From: a candidate division TM6 bacterium GW2011_GWF2_28_16
GTDB taxonomy: Bacteria > Babelota > Babeliae > Babelales > UASB340
NCBI GenBank assembly: GCA_000989185.1
Contig: LBNX01000002.1
Span: forward strand, 358,012-422,011
Direction of reading: 5' to 3'
Length of the DNA stretch: 64,000 bases
Part shown: in pieces, positions 12,312 to 60,573 of the stretch
Position numbering within the stretch: the stretch's first letter is position 1
Layout of the letters: every line of letters starts with the position of its first letter
Notes under the pieces: generated by a model
What the model saw: the letters and a program-made list of their open reading frames with translations, nothing else
The model's database searches: none
What the model was told of the DNA's origin: nothing
Program-made: the position numbers and the translations under genes

Positions 12312-12344
12312 AAAAAAAAGAGCCCGCCGGTTTAATGGCGGGCT
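12312..12344 (-). terminator. Rho-independent terminator downstream of rpsA
   Basis: On the minus strand: AGCCCGCC-loop-GGCGGGCT followed by T8. Confidence 0.8.
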
Positions 12345-12368
12345 AATTATAATTACCCAATAAAAATT

Positions 12369-14195
12369 TTACTCTTTATTGCTTTTATTCATGTGAGCTT
12401 CTAAAGCTTGCTGTAAAGAAGATTTTGGTTTTCTTGCATCTTCTTGTTGTGTGTTTTCTTCAGGTTCTCTAGCTGTTACTCTGCGAGGTTTAGAAGTGCC
12501 TGCAGCAGATGAGCCAGCGCCAGCTTCTTTTTTGCCTTTAGATTCTTTAGGTTTACTAGAAGTTCTTAAGCTTAAACCAAGCTTTTTGTCTTCTTCGTTA
12601 ACTTTAACAACTTTGAATTTTCTGGTTTCGCCAACTTGTAATACATCTTCTACTTTTTCTACATCTGTATCAGAAAGTTCAGATATATGTATTAAGCCTT
12701 CAATTCCAGATTCAAGTTTTACAAAAGCGCCAAAGTTTGTAATTTTGGAAACTTTACCTTCAACTTCGCTTCCTACTGGATGCTTAGTTTCGATATTTTC
12801 CCATGGATCGCCTGCAAGTTGTTTTACGCCAAGAGAAACTTTTTTATTATCGCTATCAACGTTTAATACTAAAGCTTCAACTTCGTCACCTTTTTTATAT
12901 TTATCACTAGGGTGATTTATATTGCTTGCCCAAGAAATATCAGAAATATGTACAAGGCCATCAACACCTTCTAGTAATTGAACAAATATACCAAAGTCTG
13001 TAATGTTTGTGATTTTACCCTTAATTTTATCGCCAGCTTTAAATTTAGCAGCAACTTCTTTCCAAGGGTCTTGGCTCATTTGTTTAATACTTAATGACAT
13101 TCTTCTGTTGTCTTTATCAAGAGCTACAACTTTAACTTCTATTGTATCGCCTGCAGCATAGTGCTTAGCTAAGTTTGTAATTCTTTCTGTCCAAGAAATT
13201 TCAGAAATATGTACAAGGCCTTCTACGCCTTTTTCTATTTCTACAAACAAGCCGTAATCTGTAATGCTGGAGATTTTACCTTTAATAATAGATCCAACAG
13301 GATATTTTTTATCAATTTCTGCCCATGGATTATCAGAAAGCTGTTTAATGCCAAGGGATATTTTTTCAAATTGTTTATCAAAAGAAAGAACTTTTACGTT
13401 GATTTCATCACCAATTTTTAATAATTCGCTTGGGTGTGTAATTCTGCCCCAAGACATATCTGTGATGTGTAAAAGACCGTCAATACCACCAATGTCAACA
13501 AACACACCATAGTTGGTGATGTTTTTGACTATACCACGAATCACTTGGCCTTCGCTGACATTTTCTAATGCTTTTTGTTTATCAACGCTTCTTTGTTCTT
13601 CTATAAATTTACGACGGGAAATTATTACATTACCGCGTTTTTTATTAACTTTTAAAATTTTACCGGTAACTTCTTGTCCAACAAATTGATCAAAATTATT
13701 AATTCTTTGAGTATCAACTTGAGATCCTGGTAAAAATGCTGGGATACCAATATCAACGCTAAGACCACCCTTAACTTTGTGTGTTACAACACCTGTTACA
13801 GGCATATCTTTTTCTGCAAATTCGGCAATTTTTTCCCAAGCTCTGATTGCTTTTGCTTTTTGGTAAGAGAGAACTATGTTGCCATATTCATCTTCTACGC
13901 GATCTAAAATGACATCAATTTCGTCATTTACATGCAATTTTTTTAGTTCTATTTCAGAAAATTCATAGTTAGGAATAAAACCGTCAGATTTATAATTTAT
14001 ACTGACTGTAACTCCATTATTTTCTTTTATTATAATTTTGCCTTTAATAATTTTTTCAGCATCAAACCCTTGTAAGGTTTGAGTAAAAATAGCGGCAAGA
14101 TCATTTTTATCTTGTTCGCTTATATTAAAAACTTCTTCTAATAATTCTGTGTTAAGAAGAGGCGAAATAGAGAATTTCTCTGGATTATTTTCCAT
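12369..14195 (-). CDS. rpsA: 30S ribosomal protein S1 (six S1 domains) with a basic, low-complexity C-terminal tail
   Basis: Repeated S1 OB-fold motifs (G.V..I..FG.FV....GL.H.S). Start at ATG 14195 (MENNPEKF) is preferred; the track ORF extends to 14219. Confidence 0.95.
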   Translation of the reverse strand: MENNPEKFSISPLLNTELLEEVFNISEQDKNDLAAIFTQTLQGFDAEKIIKGKIIIKENNGVTVSINYKSDGFIPNYEFSEIELKKLHVNDEIDVILDRVEDEYGNIVLSYQKAKAIRAWEKIAEFAEKDMPVTGVVTHKVKGGLSVDIGIPAFLPGSQVDTQRINNFDQFVGQEVTGKILKVNKKRGNVIISRRKFIEEQRSVDKQKALENVSEGQVIRGIVKNITNYGVFVDIGGIDGLLHITDMSWGRITHPSELLKIGDEINVKVLSFDKQFEKISLGIKQLSDNPWAEIDKKYPVGSIIKGKISSITDYGLFVEIEKGVEGLVHISEISWTERITNLAKHYAAGDTIEVKVVALDKDNRRMSLSIKQMSQDPWKEVAAKFKAGDKIKGKITNITDFGIFVQLLEGVDGLVHISDISWASNINHPSDKYKKGDEVEALVLNVDSDNKKVSLGVKQLAGDPWENIETKHPVGSEVEGKVSKITNFGAFVKLESGIEGLIHISELSDTDVEKVEDVLQVGETRKFKVVKVNEEDKKLGLSLRTSSKPKESKGKKEAGAGSSAAGTSKPRRVTAREPEENTQQEDARKPKSSLQQALEAHMNKSNKE

Positions 14196-28307: not shown

Positions 28308-28339
28308 CTAGATCCCGGATCGGGGTCCGGGATGACAAG
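28308..28339 (+). repeat. GC-rich hairpin element, family H (CCGG-arm variant)
   Basis: CTAG-ATCCCGGA-TCGGGG-TCCGGGAT-GACAAG, a perfect 8-bp stem, in the 67-nt gap between the 992-aa gene and the OMP gene. Confidence 0.85.
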
Positions 28340-29635: not shown

Positions 29636-29659
29636 AGAATAAATTAAAAGATGAATTGT

Positions 29660-29800
29660 GCGTATGGCGATAGCCATACGCTACCCCAGTGTTGCCATGC
29701 CTGAAGGCAGGCGTATTTGATTTAGTAACGAAATAATATTTTTTTAATAAGCTTACGTTTATGTAAGCGTTATTGAGGTAGAGGAAGGCTATCGCCTTCC
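29660..29800 (+). mobile_element. MITE-like GC-rich composite palindromic element, family M, copy A (~141 bp)
   Basis: Terminal inverted repeats GCGTATGGCGATAGCCATACGCTACC and GGTAGAGGAAGGCTATCGCCTTCC. Each terminus is itself a hairpin. Two internal hairpins flank an AT-rich core. Collinear with the reverse complement of 60358..60502. Confidence 0.8.
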
Positions 29801-29812
29801 CGTTAAAATTGT

Positions 29813-31051
29813 ATGAACATTCTTTATATAATTACAAAATTAGAACTTGGTGGCGCACAAAAAGTTTGTATATCGCTTTTAGATTATTTCCAAAAAAATA
29901 GTAATTTTGCTGGCTTAATATCTGGCGATCAGGGCGTATTAGTAGATCAAATAAAAGATTTAGATAATATTTTTTTATTACCAGAGTTTAAGCGTGAAGT
30001 GGGAATAAAAAATATATTTAACGAATTTAAATTATTTTTTAAATTAATAAAAATAATAAAAGAAAATAAGAAAAAATATAAAAATTTAATTGTACATACT
30101 CACAGTACAAAAGCAGGTATTTTTGGGCGCTGGGCAGCATTTTTTGCTGGTGTAAAAAACAGAGTGCACACTGTGCATGGTTTTGGTTTTCATGAAGGGC
30201 AAAATAAATTTGTATGGCTTATTATTTATTTGCTTGAATTTTTTACGGCTTTTATTACAACAAAATTTATTTGTGTGTCTAATTTTGATTTAAATACTGG
30301 TTCAAGATTATTGCCATTTTTTAAAAAGCGTTCAAGTGTAATTAACGCTGCAGTAGATTATGAAAAATTTTATTTAGAAAAAAAAGAAATTAAAAATTTT
30401 AATAAAAATTTAAATCAAAAATTTATAATAGGCACAGTGTCTTGTTTTAAGCCTCAAAAAAATTTAATAGACTTATTGCAAGCTTTTAAAAAAGTATTAA
30501 ATAATATAACAAGTGGAGAGCGTCACAGGTTTTGTCATACTGAACTTGCTGTGCCCGACGAAGCTTTACGCGAAGTCTGGGATTCAGCATCCAGAAATAT
30601 AAAATTCAATAATATTCTTTTGCAAATTATAGGTGATGGTGAACAACGTGAATATTTACAAGATTTTATTTTAAAAAATAATTTACAAAATAATATAGAG
30701 CTTTTGGGTTGGCAAGATAACGTTGCAAAATTTATGCATAATTGGGATTTGTTTGCTTTAAGCTCTTTATGGGAAGGTTTGCCTTGTGTAGTTGTTGAAG
30801 CTCGATTGGCAAAATTACCTGTTATTGCTTATAAAATATCTGGAATTCCAGAAGTTATATTCGATAATAAAAATGGTTTTTTGATAGATTCAGGGAACTG
30901 GGAAGTGCTGGCTGAAAAAATTGAATTTATTATAAAAGATAATATTAATCGAGAAAAATTGTCTAATTATAATGATAATTTATCTATGTTTAATAATAAT
31001 TACATGATTAACGAACATTTACTGCTTTACAAAAGCGTTCTTTATACATAA
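29813..31051 (+). CDS. Glycosyltransferase family 4 (GT-B) carrying an in-frame repeat-derived insertion
   Basis: ILYIITKLELGGAQK N-terminus and C-terminal WEGLPCVVVEARLAKLPVIAY (E-x7-E region). The GC-rich segment 30515..30594 encodes SGERHRFCHTELAVPDEALREVWDSASR in the interdomain region. Confidence 0.8.
   Translation: MNILYIITKLELGGAQKVCISLLDYFQKNSNFAGLISGDQGVLVDQIKDLDNIFLLPEFKREVGIKNIFNEFKLFFKLIKIIKENKKKYKNLIVHTHSTKAGIFGRWAAFFAGVKNRVHTVHGFGFHEGQNKFVWLIIYLLEFFTAFITTKFICVSNFDLNTGSRLLPFFKKRSSVINAAVDYEKFYLEKKEIKNFNKNLNQKFIIGTVSCFKPQKNLIDLLQAFKKVLNNITSGERHRFCHTELAVPDEALREVWDSASRNIKFNNILLQIIGDGEQREYLQDFILKNNLQNNIELLGWQDNVAKFMHNWDLFALSSLWEGLPCVVVEARLAKLPVIAYKISGIPEVIFDNKNGFLIDSGNWEVLAEKIEFIIKDNINREKLSNYNDNLSMFNNNYMINEHLLLYKSVLYT
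30532..30594 (-). repeat. Family H hairpin (TGAA-arm variant), degenerate and split by a 33-nt GC-rich insert; lies inside the GT4 CDS
   Basis: TTGTCATACTGAACTTG [33 nt] ATTCAGCATCCAG. Compare the reverse complement of copy 58889..58918, TTGTCATCCTGAACTTG-ATTCAGGATCCAG. Total 63 nt, which is 21 codons. Confidence 0.75.
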
Positions 31052-52173: not shown

Positions 52174-52203
52174 CTAGATCCTGAATAGAGTTCAGGATGG
52201 CAA
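52174..52203 (+). repeat. GC-rich hairpin element, family H (TGAA-arm variant)
   Basis: CTAG-ATCCTGAA-TAGAG-TTCAGGAT-GGCAA. Sits 19 nt after the terminator and 44 nt before the NurA-like start. Confidence 0.85.
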
Positions 52204-52246: not shown

Positions 52247-53509
52247 ATGTTAGATAAAAATAAATTATATTTACAGATTAAAAAAAATGCGCAAAAACTT
52301 TTTAGTGATTTTACTCAAGAATTTGATTTAGCTAAAAAAAAGTGGCAAGAAATTTCTTGTGATATTAATTTTAAAAATAAAGTTGAATTTTCTCATGCTA
52401 GTTTTTTAACTCCAACTTGGCTTGGTAATTTAAATGATAAATTTAAGATCGATAATAAAATTTTTAATTATTCTATATTATCTGTAGATGGTTCTCAGGT
52501 TTATCCAGATCGTAATATATCTGGAGCAAATTGTTGCTTAATAAATATCGGTTCATGTTTAATTAAATATAATAATACAGGCAGCTCCGTCAAAATAGGC
52601 TCTGAGCCACTTTTATTTTTGTTAGATGATTTATTTGAACATGCTATCCCGAGTAAGGACCCGGGATCTAGTGATCTTGTTGATTTAAAGCGAGAAGAAC
52701 TTGAACTTTTAAACTTGTTAAATATAACTTTAGAACAAAATATAGATATAGCATTTGTAGATGGTACTGTAATATTTTGGTTTTTAGAAAGTAAGCCAGA
52801 AGAAGTAAAAAATTTATTTTTAAATTTATATTTAAATATTTTACAAAAATTTTATGATCAAAAAAAAATAATTGCAGGTTTTATAAGCTTTCCCAAAAGC
52901 AAAGAGCTTATTAATTTAATTAAAATTGGCTTGTGTAAGTACGATTACGCTGACTGTATTGCTTGTTATAAAATTTATAATAATAAAGCGTTTGATAAAG
53001 TGGATTCGACTACGCAGCAAGCTGCTGCGCTCACCACGAACGCCCCGTTCGCCCTGAGCGAAGTCGAAGGGGTTGCCATTTCTAAGAATGCTCAGCCCTG
53101 TATGCTTGTTGATAATTTAATAGATACTAAAATATTAAGAAATTTTTTAAATATAAATGAGCGAACTACAGTTTTTTTTAGTAATTCAAAAATTGTAGAT
53201 AGTTATCCAGATTATCTAAAACCCTGTTTTTTTTATTTAAATGCAGGGGTAGAAATTGTACGTATAGAGACTTTTAAATATATTGCACAAGATGAAAAGT
53301 TAATTAATCTTATTGCAAGCGTAGCTCTTGATCAAATTAATAAGGGGCTTGGTTACCCTGTAACTTTGGCTCAAGCGCACGAAGCTGCAGTTGTAAAAGG
53401 ACCAGATAGAGAGTTTTTTTATAATTTATTACAAAAAGAAGCTCTTGATCAATCACGAAGATTAATTTACTCTCAAAAGAGTATAAAAAAACGTGGCACT
53501 GGGGTATAA
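52247..53509 (+). CDS. NurA-like nuclease domain protein carrying two in-frame repeat insertions
   Basis: YSILSVDGSQVYPDR (NurA Asp motif), IAFVDGTVIFW, C-terminal GYPVTLAQAHEAAVVKGPDREFF. GC-rich inserts at 52643..52671 and about 53003..53075. Confidence 0.6.
   Translation: MLDKNKLYLQIKKNAQKLFSDFTQEFDLAKKKWQEISCDINFKNKVEFSHASFLTPTWLGNLNDKFKIDNKIFNYSILSVDGSQVYPDRNISGANCCLINIGSCLIKYNNTGSSVKIGSEPLLFLLDDLFEHAIPSKDPGSSDLVDLKREELELLNLLNITLEQNIDIAFVDGTVIFWFLESKPEEVKNLFLNLYLNILQKFYDQKKIIAGFISFPKSKELINLIKIGLCKYDYADCIACYKIYNNKAFDKVDSTTQQAAALTTNAPFALSEVEGVAISKNAQPCMLVDNLIDTKILRNFLNINERTTVFFSNSKIVDSYPDYLKPCFFYLNAGVEIVRIETFKYIAQDEKLINLIASVALDQINKGLGYPVTLAQAHEAAVVKGPDREFFYNLLQKEALDQSRRLIYSQKSIKKRGTGV
52643..52671 (-). 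repeat. Family H hairpin (CCGG-arm variant), in frame inside the NurA-like CDS
   Basis: GCT-ATCCCGAG-TAAGGA-CCCGGGAT-CTAG, 7 of 8 stem pairs; encodes AIPSKDPGSS. Confidence 0.8.
53003..53075. repeat. GC-rich palindromic insertion (family G) in frame inside the NurA-like CDS
   Basis: Inverted termini TTCGACTACGC (53005..53015) and GCGAAGTCGAA (53058..53068), 10 of 11 complementary. Internal palindrome CGCAGCA-AGC-TGCTGCG. Encodes DSTTQQAAALTTNAPFALSEVEGVA. Confidence 0.7.
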
Positions 53510-53521
53510 TATTGGGCTTTT

Positions 53522-55474
53522 ATGTTAATAGTAAAAAAATTAAGTTTAAACTTTGGTCAGCAAGTAATTTTTGAAGATATTTCGTTTACTGTAAATTCAA
53601 ACGAACGAATTGGTCTTGTTGGGCGTAATGGTTCTGGAAAAACTACTTTATTAAAAATAATAAGTGATTTTAATCAATCAGGTACAAAAGACTTTGATTC
53701 TGGCCAAATAGAGATATATAAAAATAAAAAAATTGCATACTTGCCACAGCAGGTTATTTTAGAGTCAAAAAAAGATATTTTACACGAAGCGCTAAATAGC
53801 TTTATAACAGATTTGGGTTATTTAGGTGATTTAATTCATGAATATAATGATCTTGAAAATAAAATTAATAGTTTACATAATCACGAAGTAAATAATCTTG
53901 AAAGATATTCGAATTTGCAAATTCTTTTAAACGAGCTTAATTTTGAAAAAAAAGTTTTAGAAACTAAAAAGATTTTATTGGGTTTAGGCTTTAGTGAAAG
54001 TATCTTAAAAGATAGCGTACAAACGCTTTCTGTTGGTTGGAAGATGCGCTTGGTTTTGGCTAAATTGTTATTGCAAAAGGCTGATTTTTATTTATTTGAC
54101 GAACCAACAAACCATTTAGATTTAGTAGCAAAAGATTGGTTTTTAGCATTTTTGCAAAATGCTAACTTTGGTTTTATGTTAGTTTGTCATGATAGATATT
54201 TTTTAGATAAATTATGTTCACAAATTTATGAATTATCTTTAGGCCAATTAAATATTTATACAGGTAATTATTCTAAATATTTGGAACAAAAAGAACATGA
54301 TAAACAACTTTTAGAACAAAAATATATAGAACAACAAAAATATATTAAAAAAGAGATGGCTGTAATAGATCGCTTTAGGGCAAGTGCATCAAGATCTAAT
54401 ATGGCGCAGAGTAAATTAAAAGCATTAGAAAAATTAGAACTTGTAAAAATAGAACCAATGCAAAAAATTGTTAAAATAAAATTTAATAATGTAAAACAGG
54501 CTGGCAAAATAGTTTTGACTGTTAAAAATTTAGCAAAATCTTTTGGTGATAAATTAATTTTTAAAAATGTAAATTTTGAAATTGATCGAGGCGAAAAGGT
54601 TGCAATAGTTGCGCCAAATGGTCAAGGTAAGTCGACTTTATTAAATATGATTATGGAGAATATTCTGTGTGAAGACCCGGGATCTAAAATTATTTTTGGA
54701 CATAATGTTTTTCCGGCATTTTTTGAACAGGATCAAAATAAAACTTTAAATCCAAAAAAAACTATATATCAAGAAGTAGAAGATAGCTGTAAAACAACAG
54801 AACAAAGACAAAAAATTAGGACTATTTTGGGCTCGTTTTTGTTTTCTGGTGATGATATCGAAAAAACTATATCTGTTTTAAGTGGTGGTGAAAAAAATAG
54901 AGTTGCAATGGTAAAGGTTCTTTTGCAAGATGCGAATTTTTTAATATTGGATGAACCTACAAATCATCTTGATATAGAATCAAAAGAAGTACTATTGTCT
55001 GTTCTAAAAGATTATCCTGGGACTATATTATTTGTTTCTCATGATCGTGATTTTTTGAATAATTTATCAACAGCTATAATAGAATTAAAACAAGATTCTA
55101 GCTATAAATATAAAGGTAATTATGATGCATTTTTGGAACAAAAAGATGCACAGCAAAATGTAATCGAAAATGTTAAAAATATAGAATTAAGAGCTAATCA
55201 TATTGAGCATGCATTGTCATCCCGGGCAAGGACCCGGGATCCAGAAATAAAACATTCAAATAATTTCTCCAAAAATGATTATGAAACTCGTAAACAAATA
55301 AGAGCATTAGAAAGTAAGATAGAAAAACAAGAAAAAGAACTTGAACTTTTAACTAAAAAGTTTGAAAATTTAGAATATGGATCTAAAGATTATAATAAAG
55401 TTTTAAATGAAATTAATAAAATAGAAAAAGAGCTAAATGAAAATTTAGCTCTTTGGGAAATTTTAAATAGTTAA
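53522..55474 (+). CDS. ABC-F family ATPase (Uup/YheS-like, C-terminal coiled coil)
   Basis: Two ABC cassettes (GRNGSGKTT / LSVGWKMR / YLFDEPTNHLD; APNGQGKST / LSGGEKNR / LILDEPTNHLD), no TM domain, coiled-coil tail. Contains a family H copy and a half-copy in frame. Confidence 0.9.
   Translation: MLIVKKLSLNFGQQVIFEDISFTVNSNERIGLVGRNGSGKTTLLKIISDFNQSGTKDFDSGQIEIYKNKKIAYLPQQVILESKKDILHEALNSFITDLGYLGDLIHEYNDLENKINSLHNHEVNNLERYSNLQILLNELNFEKKVLETKKILLGLGFSESILKDSVQTLSVGWKMRLVLAKLLLQKADFYLFDEPTNHLDLVAKDWFLAFLQNANFGFMLVCHDRYFLDKLCSQIYELSLGQLNIYTGNYSKYLEQKEHDKQLLEQKYIEQQKYIKKEMAVIDRFRASASRSNMAQSKLKALEKLELVKIEPMQKIVKIKFNNVKQAGKIVLTVKNLAKSFGDKLIFKNVNFEIDRGEKVAIVAPNGQGKSTLLNMIMENILCEDPGSKIIFGHNVFPAFFEQDQNKTLNPKKTIYQEVEDSCKTTEQRQKIRTILGSFLFSGDDIEKTISVLSGGEKNRVAMVKVLLQDANFLILDEPTNHLDIESKEVLLSVLKDYPGTILFVSHDRDFLNNLSTAIIELKQDSSYKYKGNYDAFLEQKDAQQNVIENVKNIELRANHIEHALSSRARTRDPEIKHSNNFSKNDYETRKQIRALESKIEKQEKELELLTKKFENLEYGSKDYNKVLNEINKIEKELNENLALWEILNS
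54672..54686 (-). repeat. Family H half-copy (one arm plus flank) inside the ABC-F CDS
   Basis: AAGACCCGGGATCTA is identical to the 3' half of copy 56623..56652; encodes EDPGS just after the second Walker A. Confidence 0.6.
55214..55244 (-). repeat. Family H hairpin (CCGG-arm variant), in frame inside the ABC-F CDS
   Basis: TTGTC-ATCCCGGG-CAAGGA-CCCGGGAT-CCAG, a perfect stem; encodes LSSRARTRDPE in the linker before the coiled coil. Confidence 0.85.
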
Positions 55475-56622: not shown

Positions 56623-56652
56623 GGTCATCCCGGGCAAAGACCCGGGATCTAA
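56623..56652 (-). repeat. Family H hairpin (CCGG-arm variant) in the ychF 5' leader / divergent promoter region
   Basis: GGTC-ATCCCGGG-CAAAGA-CCCGGGAT-CTAA, a perfect stem, 22 nt upstream of the ychF start codon. Confidence 0.85.
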
Positions 56653-58888: not shown

Positions 58889-58918
58889 TTTTTTATTACT
58901 GGATCCTGAATCAAGTTC
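58889..58918 (+). repeat. GC-rich hairpin element, family H (TGAA-arm variant)
   Basis: CTGG-ATCCTGAA-TCAAG-TTCAGGAT-GACAA, 31 nt upstream of miaB. Its left flank TTTTTTATTAC resembles that of copy 52174. Confidence 0.85.
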
Positions 58919-58949
58919 AGGATGACAATGTTAGAGAAATATTTTAATT

Positions 58950-60357: not shown

Positions 60358-60502
60358 AGCAAGGCGATAGCCTTGCTCTACCATAATGATGCCTACATAA
60401 ACGTAGGCTCTAATGATATGAAATAAAAAAATATTTATAATTTAAATTTAAGCCCGCCTTTAGGCGCGGCGATGTTGTGGTAGAGGAGGGCTATCGCCCT
60501 CC
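60358..60502 (-). mobile_element. MITE-like GC-rich composite palindromic element, family M, copy B (~145 bp), inverted relative to copy A
   Basis: Termini AGCAAGGCGATAGCCTTGCTCTACC and GGTAGAGGAGGGCTATCGCCCTCC. Internal hairpins GCCTACATAAACGTAGGC and GCCCGCCTTTAGGCGCGGC. Its reverse complement is collinear with 29660..29800, with compensatory stem changes. Confidence 0.8.
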
Positions 60503-60573
60503 GGCAGTATAATTTTTTTAAAAAAAAGTTGATTATATTTATAAATTGTACATAATTATAACAATTAATGCGT

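Follow-up and report, generated by a model that had tools for sequence, protein, structure and literature searches.

How a hairpin comes to lie inside the loop of a different hairpin, with both inside the coding sequence of a conserved enzyme, is the question raised by a 63-nt site (30532–30594) in the DNA considered here. This DNA, referred to as the window, is a stretch of 64,000 nt from contig LBNX01000002.1 of a candidate division TM6 (Dependentiae) bacterium, and the site falls within an open reading frame (ORF) for a GT4 glycosyltransferase. On the forward strand it reads TTGTCATACTGAACTTG, CTGTGCCCGACGAAGCTTTACGCGAAGTCTGGG and ATTCAGCATCCAG in succession. An original prediction, made from the letters of the window, had taken the outer pieces for the two halves of a short repeat (family H) opened in its loop by a different, 33-nt element. 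These identities were borne out, and the site probably represents selfish DNA made up of two independent, non-autonomous hairpins, with H arriving first, the 33-nt unit then entering its loop, and the whole being tolerated in frame. Besides the window, 7.7 kb more of the same contig was examined (~72 kb of the source genome in all), together with loci in other genomes and metagenomes, which are designated by L-numbers (e.g., L052).

The split hairpin at 30532–30594

The window is AT-rich, having a G+C content of 22–37% when measured in 2-kb windows. The left half of the site was found to be identical at 16/17 positions to the reverse complement of 58912–58928, and the right half at 12/13 to the intact H copy of which these positions form part (58899–58928), giving 28/30 for both halves together. 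When paired halves were sought, allowing ≤1 mismatch in each and 0–100 nt between them, exactly two arrangements were present in the window, the intact copy and the split one, and base composition predicts ~9e-9 per window, so that the split match is not a product of chance. The left tag TTGTCAT is compatible with HGTCWY and the right tag ATCCAG with RNCYNB, the two ends of the published SRM consensus described below. The interruption lies between CTTG and A. As CTTGA or CTTGT is the native loop of CTGAA-type H copies, both in this genome and at the related loci L094 and L095, the junction had been placed correctly. No clear target-site duplication is visible at the composite junctions. The ORF is open across the segment and reads ...RFCHTELAVPDEALREVWDSASRN...; three of the six frames are stop-free in the composite and five of six in the 33-nt piece (Table 1).

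The copy in the glycosyltransferase gene has probably lost the stem of its host hairpin, as had been proposed. The two differences in the host arms affect both bases of a single stem pair (C-G to A.C), the H stem is no longer used in the predicted minimum-energy folds of this copy, whether as single-stranded DNA (ssDNA) or as RNA, and the G>C change makes an alternative TGCTG/CAGCA pairing. The two positions do pair with each other, as claimed; however, a count of two substitutions presumes a CC/GG-type ancestor. The sequence may instead reflect one T>C change in an ancestor with A-T, the corresponding pair being A-T in the published variant of the Neisseria Transformation Sequence (GTCATACT...AGTATC).

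Table 1. Positions of the split site, its gene and the other family H copies, numbered from the first letter of the window.
Feature	Positions	Strand	Description
GT4 (GT-B fold) glycosyltransferase ORF, 412 aa	29813–31051	+	Pfam Glyco_transf_4 and Glycos_transf_1
Left half, host hairpin (family H, SRM/NTS-like CGTC-REP class)	30532–30548	+	TTGTCATACTGAACTTG; tag TTGTCAT, arm ACTGAA, loop start CTTG
Inserted 33-nt hairpin unit	30549–30581	+	CTGT, stem GCCCGAC, loop GAAGCTTTACGCGAAG, stem TCTGGG with one bulged T
Right half, host hairpin	30582–30594	+	ATTCAGCATCCAG; loop end A, arm TTCAGC, 3′ tag ATCCAG
H copy, intact, CTGAA-type	58899–58928	-	TTGTCATCCTGAACTTGATTCAGGATCCAG; intergenic; reference for the split copy; 8-bp hairpin, z -2.6
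H copy, CTGAA-type	52174–52201	-	GCCATCCTGAACTCTATTCAGGATCTAG; intergenic
H copy	28308–28336	-	GTCATCCCGGACCCCGATCCGGGATCTAG; intergenic; kept at the orthologous L002 site; matches SRM regular expression
H copy	55216–55244	+	GTCATCCCGGGCAAGGACCCGGGATCCAG; in frame within ABC-F ORF; matches SRM regular expression
H copy	56624–56652	+	GTCATCCCGGGCAAAGACCCGGGATCTAA; intergenic; upstream of ychF-like gene

Two hairpin families and their nesting

Five further copies of family H are present in the window, compared with 0.38 matches expected for a loose form of the family pattern. Their stems vary by compensatory changes (CCCGGG, CCCGGA/TCCGGG and CCTGAA/TTCAGG), and the tags (T)GTCAT and ATCYAG/ATCTAA are common to them. 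The copy at 28308–28336 has been kept at L002:2327–2355, a locus with 81% identity in the glycosyltransferase, with two differences, one of them breaking a stem pair; some H copies are therefore old and decaying. The copy at 55216–55244 lies in an ABC-F ATPase ORF (53522–55474), where its translation, ALSSRARTRDPE, falls in the linker that joins the second ABC domain to the C-terminal one.

A full-text search with the H-related string GTCATTCCCGCG led to a study of repeats in Neisseria, Wolbachia and others (PMC11893778). The Neisseria Transformation Sequence (NTS), CGTCATTCCCGCGMAVGCGGGAATCYRG, is described there as an extension of dRS3, with CGTCATACTCGGG-N5-CCCGAGTATC as a variant, and a general ‘Ssn-related motif’ (SRM) is defined which begins with HGTCWY and finishes with RNCYNB. 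The motif is bound and cut, as ssDNA only, by the small GIY-YIG nuclease SsnA, for which loop identity is dispensable and loop extensions are tolerated; the cut is made 5′ of the hairpin and not in the loop, and ssnA is often itself flanked by the motif (NTS-ssnA-NTS) (PMC11893778). dRS3 and the Rickettsia elements RPE-4 and RPE-6 have been grouped as ‘CGTC-tagged’ repetitive extragenic palindromes (REPs), which are known within coding regions (PMC3733652).

The layout of family H is alike, with an HGTCAT tag, a GC-rich stem of 6–8 bp, a short loop and an ATCYAG tail. Across the split copy and the five others the 5′ tags are TGTCAT, GGTCAT or TGCCAT, taken here as agreeing with HGTCWY. The full SRM expression, HGTCWYN(0-2)YYVSBRHN(0-5)WNVSBRGN(0-2)RNCYNB, is matched exactly by the two window copies so marked in Table 1; the CTGAA-type copies fail it through a T at a V position, and the GT4 copy through a loop of 38 nt, the expression allowing 0–5 nt. 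On account of this layout, the tags and the two exact matches, family H as a whole is assigned by sequence to SRM, as a Dependentiae branch of the described class of CGTC/HGTC-tagged REPs (dRS3, NTS, SRM), and the GT4 copy to a disrupted derivative of it.

Some differences from the described systems were also found. Family H is here hosted by a Dependentiae genome, its CTGAA subtype and the split copy depart from the strict expression as noted, and an ssn gene was not seen in the 72 kb examined. Two of the six H copies in the window lie within ORFs, whereas 2% of NTS do so in N. meningitidis, and a nested second hairpin family is undescribed in that work (PMC11893778). Family H is multicopy, with six copies in 64 kb. 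The tetranucleotide of the window copies is TGTC, GGTC or TGCC (at the split copy, TGTC), and that of the CGTC-REP definition CGTC; under the SRM definition, which came later, H is allowed as the first base. CGTC-REPs and RPE-4/-6 are likewise short tagged palindromes lying in frame at permissive sites of ORFs which encode functional proteins (PMC3733652). The split copy is RPE-like in behaviour, its ORF being open and the insert being absent from orthologues and placed in a low-confidence loop of a confident structure model; classical RPE-1 elements are larger (100–150 bp versus 63 nt here). Cases of REPs at the centre of other palindromes are on record, namely A. variabilis GTAG-15, T. roseum GTAG-23 and H. 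neapolitanus CGTC-1 (PMC3733652), and the arrangement is reversed here, the tagged REP being the host and an untagged hairpin the guest.

The 33-nt guest belongs to a family of its own. Its 23-nt core, GCCCGNCGAAGCTTTANGCGAAG, was scanned against one genome per GTDB species and was found in 84 stretches of these representative genomes. The taxa are Babeliales/Dependentiae, Saccharibacteria, Paceibacteria, Doudnabacteria, Gracilibacteria and Bacteroidota, together with Alpha- and Gammaproteobacteria, Kiritimatiellia, Akkermansiaceae, Lentisphaera, Acidobacteriota and Desulfobacterales. The proposal that the segment is an independent repeat thus holds across genomes, but not within the DNA examined from its source, and the concern raised with the original prediction, that the segment might occur nowhere else and its likeness to H be fortuitous, is answered by these 84 stretches and by the expectation of ~9e-9. 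The family consensus has a stem GCCCGNC/GN′C(T)GGG and a conserved loop GAAGCTTTAYGCGAAG. N and N′ covary, the free pair being CG in 56 cases, GC in 13, AU in 5, UA in 3, UG in 1 and other in 5, and none of 500 shuffles attained the observed covariation score. A stem of 6–7 bp, in which a single T is often bulged, is predicted for the fold, along with a symmetric internal loop of GAA/GAA, two G-C pairs and an apical loop of TTTAY. A bias in the four bases preceding GCCCG ([CG][CT][CT]T) supports a unit of ~33 nt.

The copy in the GT4 gene is a regular member of this family (N = A, N′ = T, loop exact), with a score of 50.7 bits (E 8e-10) against a covariance model of the family (CM R1), level with the best members, and it is the sole copy in the window. 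Rfam returned no family apart from tRNAs, either for the site itself or for 15 loci bearing the core; neither hairpin is therefore a curated RNA family. Core copies were absent from the viral contigs scanned, so that a phage vector is not indicated.

A check of other H copies for loop insertions had been suggested, and such copies were found. At L052 the composite is GTCATCCCCGG-ACTTCAT-(core variant)-TGAA-CGGGGATCCAG, with a simple GTCATCCCCGGCTTTGAACGGGGATCCAG in the same genome. A metagenome scan for GTCAT, the loop of the core and ATCCAG in succession, in which the core was also permitted in arm positions, gave L090, L092 and L093, all hairpins of the GTCATTCCCGCG type with the 33-nt unit between GCG and AAAG; simple H copies also occur in L092 and L093. 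The passenger is in the H loop in every composite and never in an arm, and the H stems are of at least three types with an inner unit of ~33 nt and constant boundaries. With these boundaries the unit is also found in G-type modules (L043, AGCTTG/CTGT-GCCCGGC...CCTGGG/TCGAAGC; L035, L053 and L089 are similar) and inside the plain long stems of L011, L037 and L044. A small hairpin in the loop of another had been read as a trace of mobility; this recurrence in other H loops, and the filled and empty sites among relatives described below, uphold that reading, and the published dispensability of the loop and tolerance of its extension (PMC11893778) fit a passenger carried there. Minimum-energy folding of whole regions was rejected as a test of nesting, being uninformative, as shuffled flanks paired equally often.

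A link which had been drawn between the 33-nt segment and a family G element at 53058, through the common string GCGAAGTC, did not hold up, as an 8-mer match of this kind has E=18 in the window and is at chance level. The family G element itself is GC-rich (...CGTTCGCCCTGAGCGAAGTCGAAGGGG...) and occupies ~53010–53075 (+), in frame in a NurA-domain ORF (52247–53509), where it encodes ...TTNAPFALSEVEG.... There is a loose likeness between the core and the family G loops, both having a CGAAG...CGAAG motif.

Small single-domain GIY-YIG ORFs (~80–110 aa) were found in 13 of the 84 core-selected loci. They were detected with a hidden Markov model built from eight ORFs picked by motif search, and Pfam confirmed PF01541. 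Ten of the 13 (10/84 loci) lie ≤500 nt from a core, a distance at which ~12% would be expected for random placement in an 8-kb locus. The order is tRNA, core, GIY-YIG gene, core in L020; tRNA, core, GIY-YIG gene and a core copy beginning inside its loop in L008; and tRNA, core-like hairpin, GIY-YIG gene in L041 (Babeliales). L032 has an H hairpin, a small GIY-YIG gene and an inverted H hairpin, resembling the NTS-ssnA-NTS arrangement (PMC11893778); a core lies 240 nt upstream. The proteins linked to the core make up a subfamily (~85 aa; 43% identity between a Bacteroidota and a Babeliales member) with a characteristic EKYLKSGSGRAF tail, and share only 31% identity with the H-flanked GIY-YIG protein. 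NCBIfam gave no placement of these proteins and a PDB sequence search only UPF0213-type matches. The copy in GT4 has no adjacent GIY-YIG gene and most family copies are likewise orphans. Small Bacteroidota GIY-YIG genes stand directly behind tRNA genes (L020:7057–7532, L008:4811–5199, L054:60–535 and L014:3322–3803), bracketed by direct repeats in which the core hairpin and a T-run are included, and resemble a cassette integrated at a terminator hairpin. At L043:2770–2850 (- strand view) a GIY-YIG gene is closely preceded by a core variant whose own apical loop is longer by ~25 nt, and at L010:2892–3420 a GIY-YIG gene lies between inverted G-type modules, one with a nested core.

Both families have points in common with REP/BIME repeats and their RAYT proteins and with IS200/IS605, namely small extragenic hairpins, mosaics, a dedicated small nuclease or transposase gene between its own hairpins, and mobility through ssDNA (putative in the present case). 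However, H and the core are without the GTAG tag and do not fall among the GTAG REPs or REPtrons, the neighbouring genes are of GIY-YIG type and not HUH/Y1 transposases, and such GIY-YIG proteins are not known to carry out transposition. A miniature inverted-repeat transposable element (terminal inverted repeats of 15–30 bp, target-site duplication, 70–300 bp) was considered and rejected, the composite being a 63-nt hairpin with asymmetric tags and no clear duplication. The GC clusters of yeast mitochondria and the double-hairpin elements of fungal and algal mitochondria are also GC-rich palindromes of 30–60 nt in very AT-rich genomes, lying in frame in protein genes (var1) and nested in one another; they differ in being organellar and unrelated in sequence, and they are not known to have a GIY-YIG association of this type.

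The GT4 loop in structure and among relatives

Homologues of the GT4 protein number >2000, the closest named ones being from Dependentiae/Babeliales, where the gene is conserved and syntenic. The protein is identical to KKP24504.1 (candidate division TM6 bacterium) and four contigs of independent origin encode it. An AlphaFold2 (AF2) model was obtained with a mean pLDDT (predicted local distance difference test) of 85.4 and a predicted template modelling score of 0.84, and Foldseek matched it to BshA, PglA, HepE and other GT4 structures. The C-terminal Rossmann domain begins in this model with a strand (204–209) and a helix (217–234) ahead of the insert, and the inserted residues 241–261 are placed between that helix and a strand at 268–273. 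The Pfam match to Glycos_transf_1 restarts at residue 262 (profile position 43). The insert had been assigned to the linker between the two GT-B domains; by the model and the Pfam alignment it belongs instead to the surface alpha1-beta2 loop of the C-terminal domain. Modelling had been suggested as a means of seeing whether the insert is a surface loop; it falls in the sole low-confidence stretch of the model, with pLDDT <50 at 237–249 and 45–61 for ten-residue blocks over 231–260, and a helix is drawn at residues 250–261.

Alignment of orthologues, which had been suggested as a means of defining the insertion, shows that most are without the segment, the spacing from CFKPQKN to IIGDG being 39 residues in most of them versus 66 in the window. 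The excess over the shortest orthologue is thus 27 codons and not the 21 codons (63 nt) first given; as the loop is variable in length, 63 nt is still a reasonable size for the element, and the ORF is open as stated. The closest relative, L002 (81% identity), has an AT-rich loop of 50 residues with no hairpin. A decayed H in this loop (GATCTAG) was considered and rejected, since TTGTTAAATGATTTA, which flanks it, codes for conserved residues (LLNDL).

The same loop was found filled in a second species. L003 (Dependentiae species P0002) carries a GC-rich insert there, the reverse complement of which aligns with the 33-nt segment, the core being in the opposite orientation. It amounts to 69 extra nt compared with L094 and L095, which have 83–87% nucleotide identity and are both empty at this position. 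In L095 the gene carries instead, at its 5′ end, a homologous element of ~75 nt. The L003 and L095 elements occupy different sites and represent separate gains, not shared ancestry. The L002 orthologue begins with a reverse H hairpin at its 5′ end (L002:3683–3712, GAGATCCCGGGTCAAGCCCGGGATGACA), which gives rise to an annotated N-terminal extension, ...EIPGQARDD..., and repeat-like peptides are present, N-terminal or interdomain, in several other GT4 orthologues.

Possible routes to the composite

The explanation favoured here is one of successive insertions. An H hairpin would have inserted into the AT-rich DNA coding for the variable alpha1-beta2 surface loop, and the 33-nt unit would then have integrated into the exposed single-stranded H loop, between G and A of CTTGA. 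Selection would spare only stop-free events of a multiple of three (30 + 33 nt) in permissive loops of the conserved gene. The host stem would finally have decayed to the A.C mismatch, leaving a copy which may now be translated as a disordered or helical surface segment of 21 residues and which, with its stem decayed, is probably immobile. That H came first and the core second is suggested by a contrast in age, the core scoring like the best family members (50.7 bits) and the host arms having two deviations. Both hairpins may have been mobilised in trans through ssDNA by GIY-YIG partners, with extruded hairpin loops as preferred targets.

Arrival in one step is almost as likely, the nesting having then taken place in another H copy, either of this genome or of a donor, before a pre-formed 63-nt unit of H and core entered GT4. 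The core at L003 and L095 moved together with outer arms and AT-rich flanks as a unit of ~70–75 nt to two places in the same gene, composites of H and core are present in several unrelated metagenomes, and a free core which could serve as local donor was not seen in 72 kb of the source genome. However, a second composite of the CTGAA type was not found in the window, at the relatives’ loci or in the metagenome scan, and decay seems further advanced in the host arms than in the core, though two deviations versus none is not a significant difference. It is improbable that no insertion took place at all, with H ancestrally long and including the 33 nt, and the copies of 28–30 nt being slippage deletions across the hairpin. 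Long and short forms do occur together (L026 versus L052, and within L092 and L093) and deletion between hairpin arms is mechanistically easy, but ~80 of 86 cases of the 33-nt unit are without H arms, the large majority of H copies are without the unit, and it is also nested in other hosts (G-type modules, terminator-like stems and sites after tRNAs). The three or more types of H stem around an inner unit of constant boundaries also speak against such an origin.

Recruitment, in which the extra peptide or an mRNA hairpin was kept for a benefit to the enzyme or to regulation, also appears unlikely, if slightly less so. The same loop has been struck in two species and repeat-derived peptides occur at the N-terminus and elsewhere in other GT4 orthologues; the frame is open, P>T and G>A changes take out helix breakers, and AF2 draws the helix mentioned above. 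On the other hand, the segment is lacking in the closest relatives, the inserts of the two species are oppositely oriented and encode unrelated peptides, pLDDT is low throughout the insert, and the z-scores of the fold are not significant. The same elements lie in frame in the unrelated ABC-F and NurA genes of the window, which fits permissive loops and not function. Chance resemblance or an assembly artefact is effectively refuted: the source is a metagenome assembly and the 8-mer in common with family G is at chance level, but the joint expectation for the two H halves, the covariance model score, and the identical protein on four contigs of independent origin, including a 436-kb contig of an NCBI TM6 genome, speak against it.

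A broader form of the successive-insertion reading can be put forward tentatively. A separate clade of GIY-YIG (Ssn-like) nucleases of ~85 aa might have the 33-nt hairpin as its cognate ssDNA site, and the hairpin might be a mobile unit found across phyla which integrates preferentially into the loops of SRM hairpins, of G-type modules and of terminators behind tRNA genes (‘hairpin-loop homing’). Several results weigh against the explanation by successive insertion. SsnA cuts 5′ of its hairpin and not in the loop, which leaves integration into loops without a demonstrated enzymology. A GIY-YIG gene was not found in the 64-kb window, by regular expression and by a Pfam scan of 29 small ORFs, or in the further 7.7 kb of contig. 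Nor was a second copy of the 33-nt unit found in the same DNA (≤3 mismatches, blastn-short and covariance model), and no donor or sister copy is known in the 72 kb examined. The exact core is of low copy number, usually 1–3 per genome even in complete Babeliales-like chromosomes of 1.2–1.5 Mb, which is unusual for an actively proliferating repeat. The search pattern itself accounts in part for the invariance of its 16-nt loop, and there are diverged variants (L041, L052 and L095). In a test for contiguous stems, complementary flanks of ≥6 bp were present at 7 of 86 cores versus 2.3% in permutations; the enrichment is a modest 2–4-fold, and nesting is therefore not claimed for most cores. The composite in GT4 also folds weakly, with z-scores of -0.7 to -1.5 (~-0.7 as ssDNA), so that a maintained structure at this copy is unsupported.

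Tagged REPs, in-frame insertions of the RPE kind, REPs inside palindromes and mosaic repeat regions are known already. No description was found in Rfam or the searched literature of the 33-nt hairpin across phyla, of its link to a distinct small GIY-YIG subfamily, of its repeated presence in SRM-type loops, or of all of this in Dependentiae; the searched literature likewise gave no match for the repeat-derived peptide strings or for Dependentiae together with RPE, dRS3 or REP. How CGTC-REP, dRS3, NTS and RPE repeats spread has long been an open question, the repeats being described as without a dedicated transposase in 2013 and tied, in 2025, to an ssDNA nuclease with a conjectural role in mobility. 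The GT4 site is of interest here because it offers defined substrates on which loop-directed integration can be tested, namely the core hairpin, the H loops and the adjacent GIY-YIG proteins. Hairpin-loop homing, if true, would for the first time provide a concrete route for repeats associated with Ssn (dRS3, NTS, RPE-like) to multiply, form mosaics and enter coding sequence. Translated palindromic repeats in essential genes, the RPE phenomenon, now extend to Dependentiae/TM6, and repeat-derived peptides such as those in GT4, ABC-F and NurA should not be annotated as lineage-specific protein innovations.

Other repeats were noted in the window. The spacer upstream of the GT4 gene (29636–29812) is full of other GC-rich palindromic repeats, which recur inverted at 60361–60503, beside tRNA-Cys and tRNA-Leu; in L002 the two genes on either side of the GT4 spacer abut, and the spacer is missing. 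A palindrome GCCCGCC-N8-GGCGGGC at 12317–12348, flanked by A/T runs, resembles a bidirectional terminator and has only its stem in common with the core family. At 12666–13328 a 141-nt sequence occurs three times in direct orientation, at a period of 261 nt and with 60–72% identity, and is probably an internal protein repeat.

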